This document shows positions 22,980 through 44,237 of a stretch of DNA of 64,000 bases, piece by piece. Origin of the DNA: an uncultured bacterium. GTDB taxonomy: Bacteria; Bacteroidota; Rhodothermia; Balneolales; DATFMH01. Both the position numbers and the translations under genes were made by a program. The stretch lies in NCBI GenBank assembly GCA_963787205.1, contig CAWBCD010000006.1, positions 171,009-235,008 of the forward strand. Direction: 5' to 3'. The notes under the pieces were generated by a model, which ran no database searches, was not told the DNA's origin, and saw only the letters and a program-made list of their open reading frames with translations. The number at the start of each line of letters is the position of its first letter. Position 1 is the stretch's first letter.

Positions 22980-23845
22980 TCAGGGACGCTCAATTGGCAT
23001 CCGGACCATATTCCCCCACTCGGTCCATGAACCGTCATAATTCCGGACCTTGCGTAAGCCGAGCAGATATTTCAGGACAAACCAGGTATGACTTGAGCGC
23101 TCCCCAATACGGCAATAGGTAATGACTTCCTCTTCCGGGTCGATGCCCGTATCATTCAGATATATTTCCTCCAGTTCCTCCCGTGTTTTAAAGGTCCCGT
23201 CGTCATTGACTGCTTTCGACCATGGGATATTGTTTGCCCCCTGTATATGACCACCTCGTAACACTCCCTCTTGTGGATATTCGGCCATATGCAAAAGCTC
23301 TCCACTGAATTCCTGGGGTGAGCGTACATCAATTAGAGAAAGGCCATTCTCCAGATGATGCATCACATCAAGCAAAAACGCTCTTTCCTTCTTATCATCA
23401 CGTTTCGTCATTGGATAATCACCCGGTTCGAACTCGGGAATATCCTTTGTGAATTTCCGACCTTCTTCCTCCCATTTCTTGCGGCCTCCATCCATTATCT
23501 TCACATTTTCATGATTATACAGCCGAAAAACCCACAGAGCGTAACAAGCCCACCAATTGTTTTTGTCCCCGTAAAAGATCACTTCTGTATCTTGTGATAT
23601 TCCCTTACGCTCCATCAGCTTACGAAAAGCATGCTTATTTACATAATCGCGAATAACCGGGTCATTAAGTTCGGTATGCCAATCGATATTAATCGCATTT
23701 GGAATATGTCCGGTATCGTACAAGAAGCGGATCCTCATTGCTTTCAATAATTCGTATATTTTCATCCTCAGATGTAATCGGCAACCCAGTCTGTCGTAAC
23801 CAGTACTTCGGGATTTGCGTATTATTCAATCTTTTCTGTAGTCAT
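22980..23845 (-). pseudogene. sseA: Thiosulfate/3-mercaptopyruvate sulfurtransferase (two rhodanese domains) with a damaged 5' end
   Basis: Active site [13 protein letters not shown]. The expected N-terminus, [24 protein letters not shown] / [16 protein letters not shown] / YDTGHIP, is spread over three frames and has an in-frame TAA at 23822-23824. The intact ORF is only 22980..23765. Confidence 0.7.
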
Positions 23846-24096: not shown

Positions 24097-25847
24097 ATGA
24101 TGACGTACCGATGGGTAGTAACTCCTGTACAAGATGAAACAACCGTAAAACGATTACAAGAAGAGCTGGGCGTGCACCCAACGATTGCCCGCCTGCTTGC
24201 GTTACGCGGCATCAACACATTTGAACTGGCCCGATCTTACTTCAGGCCTAACATATCCAAACTTCATGATCCATACCTGATGAAGGACATGGAGAAGGCT
24301 GCACCGCGTCTTGCCGATGCTATCCGTCATGGTGAGAAGGTCGTTGTCTATGGGGATTATGATGTCGATGGGACAACTGCCACCTCGATCATGTACAATT
24401 TCCTAAAGAATTTTGGAAGAGATGTTCAGTATTATATTCCCCATCGTTTTAAGGAAGGATATGGAATCTCACTCGAGGGAGTCGATTTTGCGGTTAATAC
24501 ATCGGCAAAACTCATTTTATCGGTCGATTGCGGAATAACAGCTCATGAAGAGGCAGAATATGCCCGCGAACATGGGATAGACATGGTCATCTGTGATCAT
24601 CATACGGTGGGAGATACGATCCCAAATGCTTTTGCTGTGCTCGACCCCAAAAGACCGGATTGCCCGTATCCTTTTAAAGGATTGTCTGGCGCTGGAGTAG
24701 CTTTTAAACTCATCCAGGCTATCCTGCATGAATTGGGACTACCACCGGAAAAGGCACATCCGTATCTGGATCTGTTGGCTATTTCCATTGCTTCCGATAT
24801 CGTTCCGATTACCGGGGAAAACCGGATATTGATGCGGGAAGGTCTAAAAAAACTAAATGAAGACCCCAGACCAGGTATTCGCGCCCTCATGGATGTGATT
24901 AACCTGAAGCCGGGGACTATAACCACTACTCAGATCGTCTTTTCCATCGGCCCCAGAATCAATGCTGCTGGACGCATGGGTGATGCCGAACAGCAGTGGA
25001 ACTGATGATCGCCGATACCTATGAGGAATGCAATCGGCTATGCACATGAACTGGAAGGCATGAATCTGAAACGACGCCGCATCGACTCAGACACAATGGA
25101 CCGCGCTATGGCCATGCTGGATGAAACATTTCGATCCGGAAAAATATTCTTCACTGGTTCTTCACGATCCCGAGTGGCACCTGGGTGTTATCGGAATCGT
25201 TGCATCCCGATCTGGTCGACAAATATTGCCGGCCGAACAATCATGCTGAGTTCGGTGGATGGCCAGATCAAGGGTTCAGCCAGGAGCATAAAGGGTTTCA
25301 ATATTTATGAGGCACTAAAGGAATGTGAGGATCTGTTGGTTCAGTTCGGCGGGCACGAGTACGCTGCCGGATTGACACTGAATGAAGAAGATCTGGAGGC
25401 ATTCCGTGAACGCTTCAACAAACTTGCAGTCAGGAATCTCTCTGAAGATGACTTAGTCCCGGAACTTGAAATCGATAGTGAACTTGAACCTTTCACGATC
25501 TTGACAGCCGGTTCTGGAAAATATTGCGACAATTTGAACCCTATGGTCCGTTGAATTTACGACCGGTATTTGTCTCTAACGGATTGCGCGTGATTGGAAA
25601 CCCAACAATTGTCGGAAACGGACACCTTAAATTGCGTTTAACACAAAATGGATCATCGACATACGATGCGATTGGTTTCAACATGCACGAATACCTTCCG
25701 ATGGTCAGAAGTGCAAAAAATGGCTCACTCAGCATGGTTTATGTGCTGGAAGAAAATACATGGAACAACAAGACGACCATCCAACTCCGTTTGAAGGATA
25801 TTCGCAATGAAAATGGGAAAGATATGGCAATAGGGGAAGATAAATGA
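24097..25847 (+). pseudogene. recJ: Single-stranded-DNA exonuclease RecJ, split over three ORFs by about 6 frame changes between 24990 and 25495
   Basis: DHH motifs (VYGDYDVDGTT, DCG, ICDHH) and GPRINAAGRMGDA. Downstream conserved segments AVELMIAD / AIGYAHELE / LVLHDPEWHLGVIGIVASR / LVDKYCRP / TIMLSSVDGQIKGSARS / FWKILRQFEPYGPLNLRPVF lie in alternating frames. Confidence 0.75.
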
Positions 25848-30158: not shown

Positions 30159-30547
30159 GATTGGAAACAAATATTAAATAAATATGGAAAATAAATTTGA
30201 TTGTACAACTTCCAAACAAAGGTCTGTACGGTGAAATTGACAACTTGGTCATTAAGTTATTGGTACAGAATATTTAATTAGTGCCATTGTTTAGTGAAAA
30301 CAGTTATTTATGAAATGCTATATAAAGGAGTTGAATTGAAATCAAAAGATCATCAAAAACTGGTTACAGCTATCATGTCATGGAATGATGGTCATTCCGG
30401 CCCAAACTGACCCCCAAAATCCGGTGAACCTGCCCCTGGGTCAGTATCTGCCATTCCGGCATAGTGACCCCCTCTCCGGATAAAAAAAGGTTTTGGTTGA
30501 TAGCTTGGTGAGTAATCGATCATCTACTCACTAATCTTGATTTCTCA

Positions 30548-32121
30548 ATGGCAGCTAAACCAAAACCTATGTCACAAATTAAGCAAATATTACGCCTGCA
30601 CCAGCAGGGCAAATCCATTAAGTTTATGGTCCGGAATCTGTCGGTCTCCCGCAATACGGTCCCGAAAGCTTTCGGGATCTGGCTTTGGGGAAGGCCAGTG
30701 GACGCGGTATCGAGGAACTGCTGAGTCTGGAAGAGACCGAACTGGAACAGATTCTGAGCCCGGCAGGCGGAGCCGAACAAACCGACCGCTATGGGGACCT
30801 GGCCGGTCAATATGATTATTTCTGCAAGGAACTCGCCCGCACCGGCGTCACTCGTTGGCTCTTGTGGAGTGAGTACCGGCAGAGTCATCCGGACGGGTAC
30901 AGCTACAGCCAGTTTTGCTGGCATCTGGCTCGGATGGGAGAGGCTCGTAAGACTACCATGGGAAACCTGCCTCATCCGGCGGGCGAGCAAACCTACATCG
31001 ATTTTGCCGGCAAGTATGGCGAGTATGTGGATCGGGATAGCGGAGAGATCCGACGGGTACCCCTGCTGGTGATGACCCTGGGTTATAGTCAATATAGTTA
31101 TGTGGAAGCTCTGCCTTCCGGGAACAGCGAAGATCTTATCGAAGGATTGAGCCGGGGGTTCATCTGGTTTGGCGGGGTCACCCAAGCGCTGATCCCCGAC
31201 AACATGAAGACCGCCGTGGTCAAGGCCGACCGCTATGAGCCGGGGATCAACAAGGTGTTGGAAGACCTGGCTAACCACTATCAGACGGTCATCCTGCCGG
31301 CCCGTCCAGGCCACCCCAGGGACAAGCCCCTGGTTGAGATGAGCGTGCGGGAGGTCTACCGTCAGATAGTGGCTCCTCTTCGAAACCGGACCTTCTTCAG
31401 CCTGAACGAACTCAACGGGGCGATTTGCCAGCAGTTGCAGGCTTGGGGGGAGCGGGCTTTTCAGGGTCGGGAAGAGACCCGTCGCGGGCGATTTGAGGCC
31501 GAACGGCAGGCCCTGGGTCCGCTGCCCACCGAACCCTTCCTGATCAAAAAACAGGTGAGCCTGACCGTGCGAAACAACTCGCACATCCAGATCCGGGAAG
31601 ACAAGCACTACTACAGCGTGCCCCACACGTACATCAGGGGGAAGGTAAAGATCATCTATACCAGCCGGCTGGTTCAGATCTTCTGCCGGGGCAGCCTGAT
31701 CGCCTCTCATCCCCGCGATCGCACGCCCTGGGGTTACACAACGGTTAAAGACCATCTACCTTCCCAGCATCAGTACTGGAGCGAGCGGGGAGCGGACTGG
31801 TACCGGCAGCGCGGGCGTGGGATCTCGGCGGAAGTGGGTCAGCTAGTCGAGCGGATCCTGACCTGCCGGACCTACCCCGAACAAGCCTTTCGCAGTCTGG
31901 ACGGGGTGCTCGGACTCCACCGCAAGGTGGGGACCGAGCAACTCACCGAAGCCGCCCGCATCGCTCTGAGCCTGGATCAGTGTAATTATAGCTTCCTGGC
32001 CCGGCTGATCAAAAACGGAATGGCAGGCGGGGAGGCTGCTCCGCCTGGTCCACCAGCCAGACTCCCTGACCACGAGAATATCCGTGGCAAAGAATATTTC
32101 CAACAATCCCTTAACCTCTAA
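30548..32121 (+). CDS. istA: IS21 transposase IstA (apparent frame break near 30660-30690)
   Basis: The N-terminal HTH MSQIKQILRLHQQGKSIKFMVRNLSVSRNTV is in one frame. The body (ORF 30685..32121), with the DDE region (..YIDFAG..LVMTLGYSQYSYVEA..IPDNMKTAV..), is in another. Confidence 0.8.
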
Positions 32122-32132
32122 TCAACCCTTCT

Positions 32133-32868
32133 ATGAATACCTCTAAGAACGAAGAACTCATGCATGAACTCCGACTCCACGGCATGCTGGTCCCGAAGGC
32201 ATTCGGGACAGGCTCTCTTGGAAACCCGCTCTCACACGAACCTGTCTCTGCCGGAAGGCCTGCAGCATCTGCTCCAGGCCGAATGGCTCCAGCGGGGCCA
32301 GCGTCGGGTGAGCAGGCTACGCAAAGCCGCCGGCTTCCGCTATCAGGCCAGCCTGGAAGAACTCGCATGGACTCCGGACCGCGGACTTGACAAAAACACC
32401 ATTGCTCTGCTTGCCGACGGACAATATATCCAGGGCGGACAGGCGGTCTTGATTACCGGTCCGACCGGCAGCGGAAAGAGTTTTCTGGCCTCGGCTCTGG
32501 GTCAGCAGGCCTGTGAGTTGGGTTACCGGACCGGTTATTTTAACATGCAAAAAATCCTCCATGCCTTCCTTCTGGCTCGGGCTGACGGAACGATTCTGAA
32601 GCTGCTGGACAAGATTGCCCGCACGCACCTGCTCATCCTCGATGATTTTGGACTCCGGCCTCTTGATGCCCAACAGCGGCTGGATCTGTTAGATATGGTG
32701 GAAGACCGTCACGGAAAGATGGCTACGATCATTGTCAGTCAGCTTCCCCTGGCCAACTGGTATGATGTGATTGGAGAGGGCACGATTGCCGATGCCATTC
32801 TGGACCGGCTTATTCACACCTCCTACCGCATTGAATTACACGGAGAAAGTATGAGAAAAAAACAGTAA
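32133..32868 (+). CDS. istB: IS21 helper ATPase IstB (apparent frame break near 32190-32215)
   Basis: Walker A ITGPTGSGKSFLA and Walker B LLILDDFG. The IstB-like N-terminus MNTSKNEELMHELRLHGM is in the frame starting at 32133; the body is in the frame of ORF 32164..32868. Confidence 0.8.
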
Positions 32869-33018
32869 TATTGTCATAGCCAAAAAGGAACCCAACCAAG
32901 CCCGATGGGGGGTCACTTTCACCGGAATGAGGGGTCAGCTTCTCCGGAATAACCAAATGATGAGTCTGTGGATGTGACTCGAGGTAAGCAGAATTTGGTA
33001 AGAACGTATGTTGCTGTT

Positions 33019-39686: not shown

Positions 39687-39700
39687 TTCCTACCTACGTA

Positions 39701-39731
39701 GACCTCCAAGGTTTTAAAAACCTTGGAGGTC
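39701..39731. terminator. Bidirectional terminator (perfect palindrome GACCTCCAAGG-TTTTAAAAA-CCTTGGAGGTC)
   Basis: 11-bp perfect stem between the convergent pruA and the surface-protein gene. Confidence 0.8.
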
Positions 39732-39750
39732 TTGTGTAACAAAGATTGAC

Positions 39751-42700
39751 CTACTTAATCAGCATCATCTTCCTGGTCTGGGTAAAGTTGCCAGCCTTCA
39801 GCCGATAGATGTACAACCCGCTGGGCAAGTTGTGGGCATCAAAACGTACCGAGTACGCTCCGGCGGCCTGAGTTCGATCTACCAGCCTGGCGACCATCTG
39901 TCCCAGCACATTGTATACGGTCAGACGCACATGCCTGCTGCCGGAGAGGGTGTAGCGGATCGTGGTCGTGGGGTTGAAGGGGTTGGGATAGTTCTGTCCC
40001 AGGTGATACCCGTTGGGCCGGGTCTGGATATTGCCCTGAATGCCCGTGGCAGCCAGTCCGGTGTTCTGCTACATAGTAGGTGTCCGTGGTGGGCAGCACC
40101 TTGGCATTGTCCGAACTCAGGTCGATGGTGTAACTGCCCATAGACGTGGTATCGGTGCGGGTCAGGGTCCAGCTAATGACTTTCTTTGCTCCCACGCCCA
40201 GACTGGGGATCGTAACCTGTTTCTGAGAGCCGGTCGTGGTGGCCGAATCGGTCTGCAGGGTTACCGTCACATTCGTGGCCGGGGAAGTGCCCAGGTTGGT
40301 CACTACCGCCGAGAGGGTAAAGGGCTGGCTGCTTTTGGGTTGGCTTCGTGGAGAGCGAATCCCGGCTGATGATCACATAGGGGGGAGCGGCTACCGAGGA
40401 GACCTCACCGGTCACGGTAGTGGTCTGGTTCTCCAGATCGCCCAGGTGCTTGCTTACCGAATCAGCCGAGGCGGTTAAATCCTGCAGGCTCACCGACTGT
40501 CCCAGGGCATACCCAAGCAGGTTGGCATACAGCCCGGCCCGTGCCGCCGCCCCGCCCACGTTTGCCTGGGCCAGGGACAGGTAGTGGGCCAGGAAGGTCG
40601 AATCGGAGGGAGCCAGCTGATCGGCCACCGCATCGACCGGGGCCTGGCTGAGCTGCAGCTGCTGGTCCAGGGACTGGTCCGCCTGCATCAGATCGCTGAG
40701 CTTTCCCAGGGCCTGGGATTTTTGATTGTTCCCGATCAGGGCAAGGATCTGCTGAACCAACTGGTTGTACTGGTCCACCGAGGTAGTCAGATCCTTCTGA
40801 CTTGTTTGCAGGGTCTGAGCGGTATAGCGGATATACCGCCTGCCCGACTGTTCGGGGACAATCTTCTGGAAAGTGCTCTGTTGGTCCGGGTGATACGCCA
40901 CATCGATCCCGTTGTTGGCCTCCACGGCGATCTGAGCCAGGCGCAGCCCGGGGGCGATCGCCGAGGTCAGGTAGGAGGCCAGGGACGTGCCTTTTAAAAC
41001 GCCTGTCATGGTTTCTGCCCCCCCGGCGACAACCGCTCCCACCCCGGTCTCGGAGGTCGGTGCGGCAATCTCGGCGATGAGCTGGGTGATGTTCGCGCCG
41101 GTTTCGGTAAGGTCTCCGCCGTCTTCGCCGCTCATCGGCTATCTTCTTGACCAGTTTGGTCGCTGCATTGGACTGCTCCAGCACCGAAGAGGTGGTCGTG
41201 TCGACCAGGTCGTGGCAGGCCTGGGCGGTAGCTGCCGCTGTAGTCAAAGGCATCGAGCCAGCTTCGCCGAGCGATCCAGCCCGGTCTGGGTCGCCGGCAC
41301 ATACCCGTAGGAGAGCAGGATCTCGTCGGAGGCGGTGCTGGCCAGCGCCTGGGTCTGGTCCTTGAGGATATCGCTCAGAAAATCCTTCTTCGAATCGCTC
41401 TGGAAGAAGTCCAGGGTCTTACCCACGGCCAGGGGCACATACTTGTTGTAGGGGGCTGGCAGGGCATTGGCCACCTTGTTGATGACCGGGTTCAGAAAGG
41501 CGCTGCGGACCTGACCCCGGATGCCCGTGACCAGACTGTTCACCTCATTGGCCAGTTGTTCGTCGGTATACTTCTTTGGAGGTCTTCTCCTCGGTTTTGT
41601 TCGCCAGTTTGCCGGCCAGGACATAATTGGTGATCAGCTGGGTGGTGGCCGTGCTCAGGCTGTGGCTCATCGTCGCCGCGTTGGTAAACTCGCCCTGGTA
41701 GAGGGACTGGACCATCAGGTGGCGGGCCAGGGCCTTGATGCGTTGGTGGTACACACTGTTGGTATCCGAGGCGCTCACCGCTGTGGCTCCCGTGCGCCAG
41801 TCCTGCAGCAGGGCGCCGGTGGCGGCGGGATCATAGCTGTTGACCAGGGGCTGGGGCGGGAGCAGGCCGAAGAGCACGTCCGAGGAGATGGTCAGATGGT
41901 CCAGGCCGTAGGCCCCGGTATAGGTCTGGTTGTACAGGCCCACCGGCAACCGAATGGAATAGTAGGTGGGTTTTACGGTATACTTCCAGGACAGGTGGGT
42001 GGCCTGGTTGGTCAGCTCATTGACCGCGTTGGCCCCGACCTGCAGGGTGTAGGAGGAGTCGGTCTGGTTGGGAAACTGGAAGCCCCCGTCCGCCCCGGTC
42101 GTCGCCTGGGTGTCCAGGGTTGCACCGCTGTACAGGGAAACCCCGGCCCCGGAGAGGGCGGAGGCCGGCAGGGTGCCCTTGCCCAGGGTTACATCCTCAA
42201 CGGTGCCGGTGACCTCGTTGGATAAGGCAGCCTTCAGGATATAAAACCCACTATTCTGTTCAGTCATGTAGATATATCCGCCGTTTGCGTAAACTACATT
42301 TGCAGCTCCACTATCCTCATATGTACCCACAGTAAACGGATGGGCCGGATCACTCACATCGAGGACTTGAAGGCCATCCATACCATTTTGATCCGCGTCT
42401 ATTGTGTAGGCGTATCCTCCTCTGGCAAACACTCCGTTCATGTAACCATTGGGACCTGAAAACTTAGGTATATATGAGTCCACTACCTTCGGATGGGCAG
42501 GATCGCTGACATCAATGATAGTAAGGGCACTATCTCTGGTTACATAGGCATCATTACCCGAAACCGATATAAAACTATCACCAGCAAAAGTTGGACCAAC
42601 ATTATATGAACCTATTTGCTTTGGATTCGCAGGGTCACTAACATCAATAATATGAAGTGTAACCCCTTGAAAGCCATAACCAGTACTGGCATATGTGGCG

Positions 42701-43533
42701 GTAATCACATATGCGTACCCATTTTTTACACAATAATCAGTCAGGAAATTACTACTCCCGAATCCTATCGAACCCACCTGGTGAGGATGGGCCGGATCAC
42801 TCACGTCGATCACATCGAGGGTATCACGATAAGAACCACCGCCTAAACCACCGCCTACATAGGCATCATTGCCTGAGACCGATATATCCCCGTATGAATC
42901 CCCGTAATAAGTTGAGTCTTTGTTGCTATATGAGCTAACCAGTTTCGGATTCGTGGGGTCACTCACATCCAGTACTTCAAGGTCACCTGAGTCTGAGCCC
43001 ACAACAGTCAGATACGCATAATGACCGACAACATCTATCCCATTTACTTGTTTATCAGTTTTATAACGGCAAACTTCCTTCGGGACCGCCGGATCACTCA
43101 TATCGATCACATAAATATGATAACCCTGGTCGGGTAGATAGGCATAGTTCCCAGATACAGAAAGATTCAACCACGTGACAGAGGTATTTCCATTCCAGTG
43201 CCCGACCACGTGTATGCCCATGCCGCCCTGAATGGACCGGCCGGTATTTCCCGATCGGGCCATGCCCATACTCACCGGTGTCAAGCCCGCCCGCCGCCGC
43301 AGGTGAGCCCGGAAGGGCAGCCCCTGCCGGGTCTGGGCCCGGACCGGCAGGGCCAGGCCGGTAATGCTCAGGATAACGATCAGTATGCCACAGAGGGGTA
43401 ACTTTTCTTTAATAACGTTTTTTAAAATAGTATTGAAACAAGAACGCTTGATATCTGCTGTATCCGTCTGCTTTGTCATGATTCCGCCTTTCCTTTTACC
43501 TGATGGGGTATGAATTACTAAGTAATGAACCAC
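39751..43533 (-). pseudogene. Large surface protein (signal peptide, LVIVD beta-propeller repeats, CarboxypepD_reg-like, helical region, CARDB-like, T9SS CTD), interrupted by at least 5 frame changes
   Basis: ORF 41545..43533 carries repeated ..YAY....L.V(I/L)DVSDPA.P.. LVIVD units. The continuation is spread over ORFs 41244..41624, 40462..41253 (first ~40 aa), 40173..41135 and 39839..40303, plus an unlisted frame ending ..QNYPNPFNPTTTIRYTL..GLYIYRLKAGNFTQTRKMMLIK* (stop at 39751-39753). Confidence 0.7.
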
Positions 43534-43590
43534 CCTTCTATACTTTCCGGAAAACCGTTGTCAACTCAGAGGCGTGATCCTCTTAGAAGG

Positions 43591-43761
43591 TTATTTGTAT
43601 GGAAATGGGTGGATATCCACAGGCAGCGGCAGATCGGAGTTGGATGATACAGTGACCAAGGGAAAGGCATAATTCTGTTGAGCATAGGACAGCATGCATA
43701 TGATTCCTGCGACAAGGCACAACAAACCCCTAGCAATAGCCAGTCGACTGATCCTTTTCAT
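43591..43761 (-). CDS. Possible small secreted protein (56 aa)
   Basis: MKRISRLAIARGLLCLVAGIICMLSYAQQ.. signal-peptide-like. Below the ORF-track length cutoff; no other support. Confidence 0.3.
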   Translation of the reverse strand: MKRISRLAIARGLLCLVAGIICMLSYAQQNYAFPLVTVSSNSDLPLPVDIHPFPYK

Positions 43762-44237
43762 TAATCAACCTACCTACTTCTATAAATAATTATCAATCAA
43801 TAGAACCAACACCCAACGATTTTGTAATTTAACCCCCCAAAACTTAGACGCAAATTAAATGAGTATAACAGTTTTAAAATACGTACTTCTACTGATATGC
43901 CATTGCCTTGCAGTGTTGTGGGGGGTTTGTTCATATTTTTTTTGGCTTGCCATTCGGAAAACACTCGGTTTCCAGCACAAAATTCATATCCCAATACCTG
44001 GAGCTTTACTCTTGTAACCTAAGATCCGGATAAGACATTCTATTGGACAGATGACAGACAGCCCGGTTCATAGCACTAACAAGGCCTTCTGTGTTGTTTT
44101 CCCAGGATATCCTGCCAACCTGATTGGGTTCCACCTTAGCTTCACCATGTCGGATCTTGTCCCGACCTTACCTTATTGTAAGGTTCAACCTGTTGAGGTG
44201 TCTTTTAAGATAAAGAGAGATTCATAAGATCGATACC

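Follow-up and report, generated by a model that had tools for sequence, protein, structure and literature searches.

A GC-rich constant tail behind AT-rich variable heads in an LVIVD-propeller gene family of Balneolales, and the probable origin of frame breaks in one copy

Why does the base composition of a single bacterial gene switch at a domain junction, and why are its frame breaks confined to the GC-rich part? These questions are raised by a surface-protein gene, here called W, in a 64,000-nucleotide stretch of DNA (the window) from contig CAWBCD010000006.1 of GenBank assembly GCA_963787205.1, which represents an uncultured Balneolales bacterium (genome of 5.0 Mb in 48 contigs, average G+C content of 45.4%). 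The gene belongs to a family of LVIVD-propeller proteins with predicted secretion by way of a type IX secretion system (T9SS). Our overall reading, in which we have moderate confidence, combines a real compositional mosaic of the whole family with frame breaks that are consensus errors in W. The gene and its parts, delimited from open reading frames (ORFs), domain matches and G+C content at third codon positions (GC3), are as follows in window coordinates:

39751..43533, minus strand: whole gene, copy W of the LVIVD-propeller family (ORFs and three-frame reading)
42223..43479, minus strand: AT-rich variable head, with a putative Sec-type signal peptide, an Arg-rich linker and an LVIVD beta-propeller (Pfam)
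43200..43400, minus strand: Arg/Gly/Pro-rich linker after the putative signal peptide, a short GC-rich patch (composition and alignment)
39751..42222, minus strand: GC-rich constant tail (GC3 step; 821 codons in intact copies)
42007..42213, minus strand: CarboxypepD_reg-like beta-sandwich (PF13620, residues 441-509 of a 662-residue ORF)
40373..42006, minus strand: all-alpha stalk of ~480-540 residues, conserved in ~40 distant homologues
40106..40300, minus strand: CARDB-like beta-sandwich (PF07705, E=8e-4 in W)
39754..40068, minus strand: T9SS type A C-terminal sorting domain (CTD; PF18962)

A compositional mosaic shared by a gene family

The initial annotation had described AT-rich and GC-rich segments alternating within one reading unit, and a sliding G+C profile reproduces all of them: the G+C fraction is 0.55-0.685 over 39800-42200, 0.41-0.49 over 42200-43200, 0.685 over 43200-43399 and 0.37 over 43400-43599. 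The two hand counts offered in its support are exact (44/60, or 0.733, for 42121-42180 and 22/60, or 0.367, for 42241-42300). The switch that had been placed at 42235 does coincide with a domain junction, where the LVIVD/propeller matches stop and the CarboxypepD_reg match starts at 42213, and the ORF 43533..41545 is indeed open through all three upstream G+C switches. Measured against 1-kb windows of the genome (mean 0.454, standard deviation 0.043), the tail of W lies about 3.7 standard deviations above the mean. Its GC3 of 0.80 is 4.4 standard deviations above that of long ORFs genome-wide (0.50, standard deviation 0.068), and the heads have a GC3 of 0.36-0.43. First and second codon positions (GC1 and GC2) are also raised in the tail; the shift is mainly synonymous and not an amino-acid effect, because the step lies in third codon positions. 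The linker patch has a G+C fraction of 0.75 in W versus 0.50-0.58 in the paralogues.

The GC-rich 2.5 kb is present in three further copies in the same genome, 91-93% identical to W, all on contig C3 of the assembly:

C3:8434..4742: paralogue A, 1231 residues, intact
C3:55929..52138: paralogue C, 1264 residues, intact
C3:12288..8457: paralogue B, with one break, in the AT-rich head

When the four genes are aligned, the heads share 45-84% identity per 100-column block and have 27-55% G+C, and the tails, from the column that corresponds to window position 42241, share 77-100% identity and have 51-72% G+C in every copy. GC3 windows lie at 0.20-0.53 in the heads (except for one early linker window in A, at 0.68) and at 0.68-0.95 in the tails, up to the stop codon, and the step between them is sharp, from ~0.35 to 0.85 within ~40 codons. 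The same G+C step is found in an orthologue, M, on an ENA SPAdes contig (L021) of a related organism, which is an independent short-read assembly. The head of M has ~0.38-0.46 G+C, its tail 0.56-0.67 and its flanks 0.35-0.40. The flanks match the region upstream of copy B at 79-92% identity. The G+C mosaic is thus real, inherited and family-wide, and consists of a variable head and a constant tail.

A chimeric assembly, in which reads of a high-GC organism were joined to a Balneolales contig, had been put forward as one possible explanation of the mosaic. The assembly does have 69-70% G+C blocks with fragmentary ORFs at the ends of contigs C24 and C25, which may be chimeric joins. For W, however, a chimera is excluded because five junctions are found in two independent assemblies: the junction falls at the same codon in four loci, two of them with open ORFs (1231 and 1264 residues), and recurs in the SPAdes contig of another organism. 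The frame and the domain order also run on through the junction, and we regard the chance that the mosaic is an assembly chimera as vanishingly small.

As a separate observation on this assembly, blocks of 62-72% G+C are joined to ~45% G+C sequence at several contig ends (C24:1-12500, C25:1-11500, C1:1-3500, C41:38001-39500 and C48:1-2500). In the C24 and C25 blocks (64-70% G+C), the coding segments are all fragmentary and lack the usual codon-position periodicity; chimeric joins, or foreign or contaminant DNA that was badly resolved, may account for them.

The frame breaks in copy W

All W-specific insertions and deletions, as seen in the alignment to A, B, C and M, fall within one patch:

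40068..41567 (1.5 kb), minus strand: patch with all seven W-specific indel events

Relative to the three paralogues, these seven events (six insertions and one deletion) cause six frame changes. They comprise single-base insertions at 41567 (A), 41254 (G), 41230 (T), 40344 (G) and 40068 (C), and a +2/-1 pair at 41131/41119. The net gain is 6 nt, so that the CTD is back in the starting frame. The at least five frame changes counted previously are therefore real, the number being six, as 41254 and 41230 had been merged. All of the indels lie outside homopolymers, and in no case does a clean single-base insertion (five in all) repeat the base beside it. The first break is ~670 nt inside the GC-rich block, away from its edge, and no frameshift occurs in the equally GC-rich tails of A, B and C, which together span ~7.4 kb. 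We also considered whether the inserted bases might represent both alleles in tandem, but dropped this as a test, since any insertion beside a matching base fits it.

Similar indels occur elsewhere in the assembly. The recJ gene (24106-25844) is 89% identical at the DNA level to its orthologue from the same genus; apart from the shifted stretches the two proteins are nearly the same (~97% identity), with 97% over the C-terminal 115 residues. The gene carries one deletion and six single-base insertions within 24989-25497, at ~46% G+C. The adjoining sulfurtransferase gene, sseA (22983-23845), has two insertions, at 23770 and 23721, and the indels of both genes are probably consensus-error patches. 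A wider comparison took 241 conserved ORFs that are intact in a genome of the same genus, G003 (MFD05684.bin.1.137), and whose orthologues share 75% identity or more; 11 of them (~4.6%) are split between frames in the present assembly. The six split genes examined first contain 13 frameshifting events: 10 are insertions of one base, 8 of them without repeating an adjacent base, and 3 are deletions, and every event falls at 43-49% G+C. Six events in 1.5 kb would have a probability of ~3e-8 at the average rate, and the events therefore come in patches.

The assembly itself has the appearance of one built from long reads: within contigs it resolves 1-3-kb repeats of 99-100% identity, contig-end overlaps of 0.85-1.4 kb are 100% identical, and near-identical repeats differ by many 1-bp gaps. 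Indel-rich consensus patches occur in long-read metagenome assemblies, the classic pattern being homopolymer deletions. The clustered single-base indels in W and recJ, in highly conserved genes of an assembly that resolves 1-3-kb repeats, resemble such patches, although here non-homopolymer insertions dominate. We consider it probable, with fairly good confidence, that the frame breaks in W are patchy consensus errors of this kind, whereby a long-read-type metagenome assembly would have left single-base, non-homopolymer consensus insertions in one 1.5-kb patch, and that the native W gene is probably intact.

Several points weigh against this assessment, which is inferential. G003, itself a metagenome-assembled genome (MAG), has 4 of 239 ORFs split in the same way, and the excess in the present assembly is not significant (p=0.11). 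The nonsynonymous share of private changes is higher in W than in A, B and C (Fisher p=0.015), which fits some relaxation of constraint. Broken family members are also frequent, including the head of B, the tail of M (a single-base deletion, in a short-read SPAdes assembly) and an LVIVD-CTD gene in G003, making pseudogenisation plausible. These last two points favour a rival explanation, in which the breaks are real and W is a recently inactivated, decaying paralogue, redundant beside A and C, whose product would be a propeller fragment of at most 644 residues that lacks the CTD and could not be secreted by the T9SS. It would also agree with this explanation that W has the most divergent tail of the four paralogues and is on its own in a separate 4.4-kb insertion that has no recombinase. 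Yet mutations in bacterial pseudogenes are dominated by deletions and slippage, unlike the six frame-shifting insertion events and one deletion of W, none at a homopolymer, and the same signature is seen in recJ and other highly conserved genes. Moreover, selective constraint shows no relaxation beyond the first break. Of the private codon changes in W (45 synonymous and 43 nonsynonymous, with many W states shared with M, which suggests that these are ancestral), 36 synonymous and 30 nonsynonymous lie downstream of 41567, versus 9 and 13 upstream (Fisher p=0.33). As five more neutral indels should have brought many neutral substitutions, the breaks do not look like decay, and the nonsynonymous/synonymous ratio, which does not rise from upstream to downstream of the first frameshift, gives no support to the decay that had been proposed to follow a domain recombination. 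We consider real decay of W unlikely.

The initial annotation had also suggested GC-dependent sequencing error. Error remains the most likely cause of the breaks, but its dependence on G+C does not stand. In favour of errors caused specifically by high G+C are the C24 and C25 blocks, which are fragmented, and a GC-rich IS21 element of the window, which is frame-broken in both istA and istB. Against it, the tails of A, B and C are equal in composition and unbroken, the first 670 GC-rich nucleotides of W are clean, and all 13 frameshifting events in the six other genes, like the insertions in recJ, occurred at 43-49% G+C. A cause tied specifically to high G+C is therefore very improbable. The IS21-family element in question is single-copy (30384-32960, ~55-60% G+C), and needs a frame change in istA near 30640-30690 and in istB near 32200.

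For annotation, this means that 'pseudogene' calls on W, recJ, sseA, the IS21 element and others should not be taken as biology until reads are checked, given that about one in twenty conserved genes is split by like insertions.

Divergent heads, homogenised tails and the source of the high G+C

Heads and tails of the family appear to have evolved differently. Synonymous divergence (dS) between copies is 0.12-0.22 in the tails and 0.55-2.2 in the heads, which are saturated at synonymous sites, old and divergent; at the nucleotide level, the head of W is 53-71% identical to the other heads. Tail identity within the genome is 0.914-0.957 versus 0.879-0.894 to M. The groupings also differ: by its head, W pairs with A (0.71), while A falls in with B and C by its tail. 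For W-A (40705-40348), A-B, A-C and B-C, stretches of shared polymorphic sites are longer than in all or almost all permutations (p<=0.0005). Because the tails are closer within the genome than to M and significant shared tracts are present, we conclude that the tails evolve in concert through gene conversion between copies. A constant region homogenised by gene conversion beside a variable region is a known form of concerted evolution, as in the tufA/tufB duplicates. The W family resembles such paralogue families in its homogenised tails, significant conversion tracts and divergent heads, and differs in that its constant block lies 30-40 GC3 points above both the variable block and the genome, which is unusual there.

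How did the tail become GC-rich? We tentatively lean towards a foreign origin over enrichment in place: the tail may have entered from a GC-richer, T9SS-bearing bacterium and since been held GC-rich within the converted block, a reading that we rate at somewhat short of an even chance. Import is suggested by the patchy distribution of the tail, its mobile contexts, its raised GC1 and GC2 and its IS21-like codon usage. In relative synonymous codon usage (RSCU), the tail correlates with the GC-rich IS21 element of the window at r=0.83, with tuf at 0.69, with the genome at 0.55 and with its own head at -0.12. As to distribution, 400 genomes of the class yielded just three with the tail, at 25-29% identity; one of these three loci has ~61% G+C throughout (G148, 25% identical), and the other two have 0.37-0.56. 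Two results stand against a foreign origin. In the search for a high-GC donor, a word-based search returned only the family itself and the best HMMER match was 33% identical, with no close homologue in high-GC genomes. In addition, polarised synonymous third-position singletons number 15 AT>GC and 27 GC>AT, a ratio less biased towards GC>AT than the 1:4 expected for a segment of GC3 0.8 relaxing to 0.5 (p=0.013).

Alternatively, the tail might have become, or stayed, GC-rich where it is. Either GC-biased gene conversion or selection favouring GC-ending codons would then have acted on the exchanged block only. This would explain why the GC-rich and the converted blocks coincide, and the same singleton counts imply an equilibrium GC3 of ~0.69, not 0.50. 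Homologous tails elsewhere have host-like G+C (0.42-0.52, or 0.61 in the 61% locus), the nearest outside homologues look AT-rich, and the native duplicated tuf genes reach a GC3 of 0.76. However, a 30-40-point GC3 excess produced by conversion among four copies would be extreme, and the codon usage of the tail best matches IS21 rather than tuf. The raised GC1 and GC2 likewise argue against enrichment in place, as does the family as a whole being lineage-specific and adjoining recombinases; the singleton counts are small, and conversion confounds their polarisation by parsimony. We therefore consider enrichment in place doubtful, and the narrower proposal, that GC-biased conversion or another exchange-tied force holds the tail at GC3 ~0.8 in a 45% G+C genome while the heads drift AT-rich, rather improbable. 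Of the earlier suggestion that a domain was recombined from a high-GC donor, the shuffling junction is retained, in view of the step in four paralogues and the presence of the tail behind several heads; no high-GC donor was found, the best outside homologue being 33% identical.

Translational selection alone was rejected as an explanation of the high GC3: tuf does attain 0.76, yet the heads of the same genes remain at 0.36-0.43. The elongation factor Tu gene (tuf) is present in two 100%-identical copies, C9:178194-179383 and C34:82298-83487, and its GC3 of 0.76 shows that highly expressed native genes prefer G/C-ending codons in this 45% G+C genome.

A modular, predicted T9SS cargo in mobile-looking contexts

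The minus-strand ORF 43533..41545 encodes 662 residues, with LVIVD/beta-propeller matches followed by the CarboxypepD_reg-like match from residue 441. Its true start is likely the ATG at 43479, and the 644-residue product beginning there is present in the protein collection; an exact-sequence look-up of this truncated ORF found it held only by this assembly. By eye, a hydrophobic core and an A-x-A-like site can be made out at the N-terminus (MTKQ…KEKLPLCGILIVILSITGLALPVRAQ), and both are kept in the paralogues. The linker that follows is also alignable across them (…QTRKAVPYM..HRRRRQN..PV.MGM..SG…). In Pfam, the head of W matches LVIVD (PF08309) over 6 stretches, at 124.5 bits (cut-off 20.2, E=9e-37), and Beta_propel and DUF5074 as well. 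TIGR04312 (choice-of-anchor B) stays far under its cut-off (45.6 versus 100 bits). This propeller is likely the ligand-binding part of the protein.

Within the tail, the PF13620 match of W (20.1 bits) is under the curated cut-off of 32.3, and four distant homologues match the same domain at 27-31 bits, still below it. The stalk had no sequence match in Pfam, NCBIfam or the PDB, and the NCBIfam search returned only the CTD and a weak choice-of-anchor B match. An AlphaFold prediction models the stalk as long helices, confident only at tail residues 467-606, in a model with a mean predicted local distance difference test (pLDDT) score of 53. It also gives a confident beta-sandwich at tail residues 614-715, and PF07705 is above cut-off in a distant homologue, P0004. 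The CTD scores 32.8 bits in W against PF18962 (cut-off 27) and 47 bits in copy A against TIGR04183 (cut-off 23). A T9SS search that covered SprA found SprA_N (PF14349) at 344.6 bits in an uninterrupted 2463-residue frame (C23:71405-72949); an intact SprA translocon is encoded in the genome. Judged by these features, the family protein would have ~1,230-1,260 residues and be exported by Sec and then by the T9SS, and its type A CTD makes attachment to the cell surface probable.

The immediate surroundings of W contain two further features:

39700..39732: 33-bp palindrome where the P5C-dehydrogenase gene and W converge (self-complementary match)
39740..44170: lineage-specific insertion of ~4.4 kb, comprising W and ~640 nt of upstream DNA (versus the two nearest relatives)

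The palindrome is likely a bidirectional terminator hairpin. Near-identical copies of it lie at C3:461229 and C12:193622, and it is kept beside the gene for P5C (1-pyrroline-5-carboxylate) dehydrogenase in relatives. Scans for sigma-70-type promoters and terminators gave results at chance level. In the two nearest relatives, G003 and the Balneolales MAG SMAG_U9247 (P5C dehydrogenase 95% identical), what follows the P5C-dehydrogenase terminator bears no relation to W; in SMAG_U9247, comEA lies within ~0.3 kb of the terminator and homology to the window restarts at ~44170. Upstream of B, C and M, at ~1-1.3 kb, are divergent tyrosine recombinase genes (C3:13248-14380, C3:57267-58325 and L021:4056-5189, respectively), the one upstream of B being split in two ORFs. 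Copies A and C are part of a segmental duplication (C3:278-8434 and C3:47784-55929) that also includes a GH3 glycosidase gene (610/611 residues) and a 387-residue gene without a Pfam match. The family genes thus sit in lineage-specific, mobile-looking contexts. Phase variation through an invertible promoter was considered for the upstream recombinases and rejected, as the four upstream regions hold no conserved inverted-repeat pair.

In a full HMMER search of 1.8 billion representative proteins, the tail had 112 relatives, and those outside the family reached 33% identity at most. Pattern scans of JGI metagenomes (one W-specific and one family-conserved) and one GTDB scan gave no match, and in 40 relatives, including three same-genus genomes, only the CTD of the tail was matched; the searched genomes of the genus and of the family did not yield the tail itself. 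In relatives, the same tail stands behind other heads, including LVIVD with Laminin_G, FG-GAP, M23 with Laminin_B, IgGFc-binding and PKD. Because it carries unrelated heads in other organisms, the tail is a reusable stalk-and-anchor module, and the head/tail junction a point of domain shuffling. In G003, a gene at C2:327625-329996 (L010/L048) has an LVIVD propeller fused straight to a 66%-identical CTD, with no stalk module; it is of ordinary composition and split over three frames.

Among T9SS type A cargos, those of the gingipain type are linked to anionic lipopolysaccharide (PMC9143113). The W family shares with type A cargos a modular passenger, a type A CTD above cut-offs and SprA/Sov in the genome, and may, by inspection, have a Sec signal peptide as they do. 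It differs in carrying an LVIVD propeller as its passenger, on a helical stalk of ~500 residues that is uncharacterised, and in that its surface attachment is deduced from sequence. Likewise, W shares LVIVD repeats, of which it has six, with LVIVD (PF08309) and choice-of-anchor B (TIGR04312) proteins, but differs from these in the GC-rich CarboxypepD_reg-stalk-CARDB module between the propeller and the CTD.

Overall, W is a further example of a modular T9SS cargo and of a paralogue family in concerted evolution, with an unusually sharp GC3 step. This intragenic step has outlasted a species split and coincides with the gene-conversion block, which makes the W family a tractable case for weighing foreign origin against biased gene conversion in bacteria. 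If GC-biased conversion does hold the tail at its high G+C, the family would provide an unusually clean natural experiment within a bacterial gene. For the biology of these organisms, this family defines a reusable, uncharacterised stalk-CARDB-CTD tail of T9SS cargo, to which interchangeable heads are joined.

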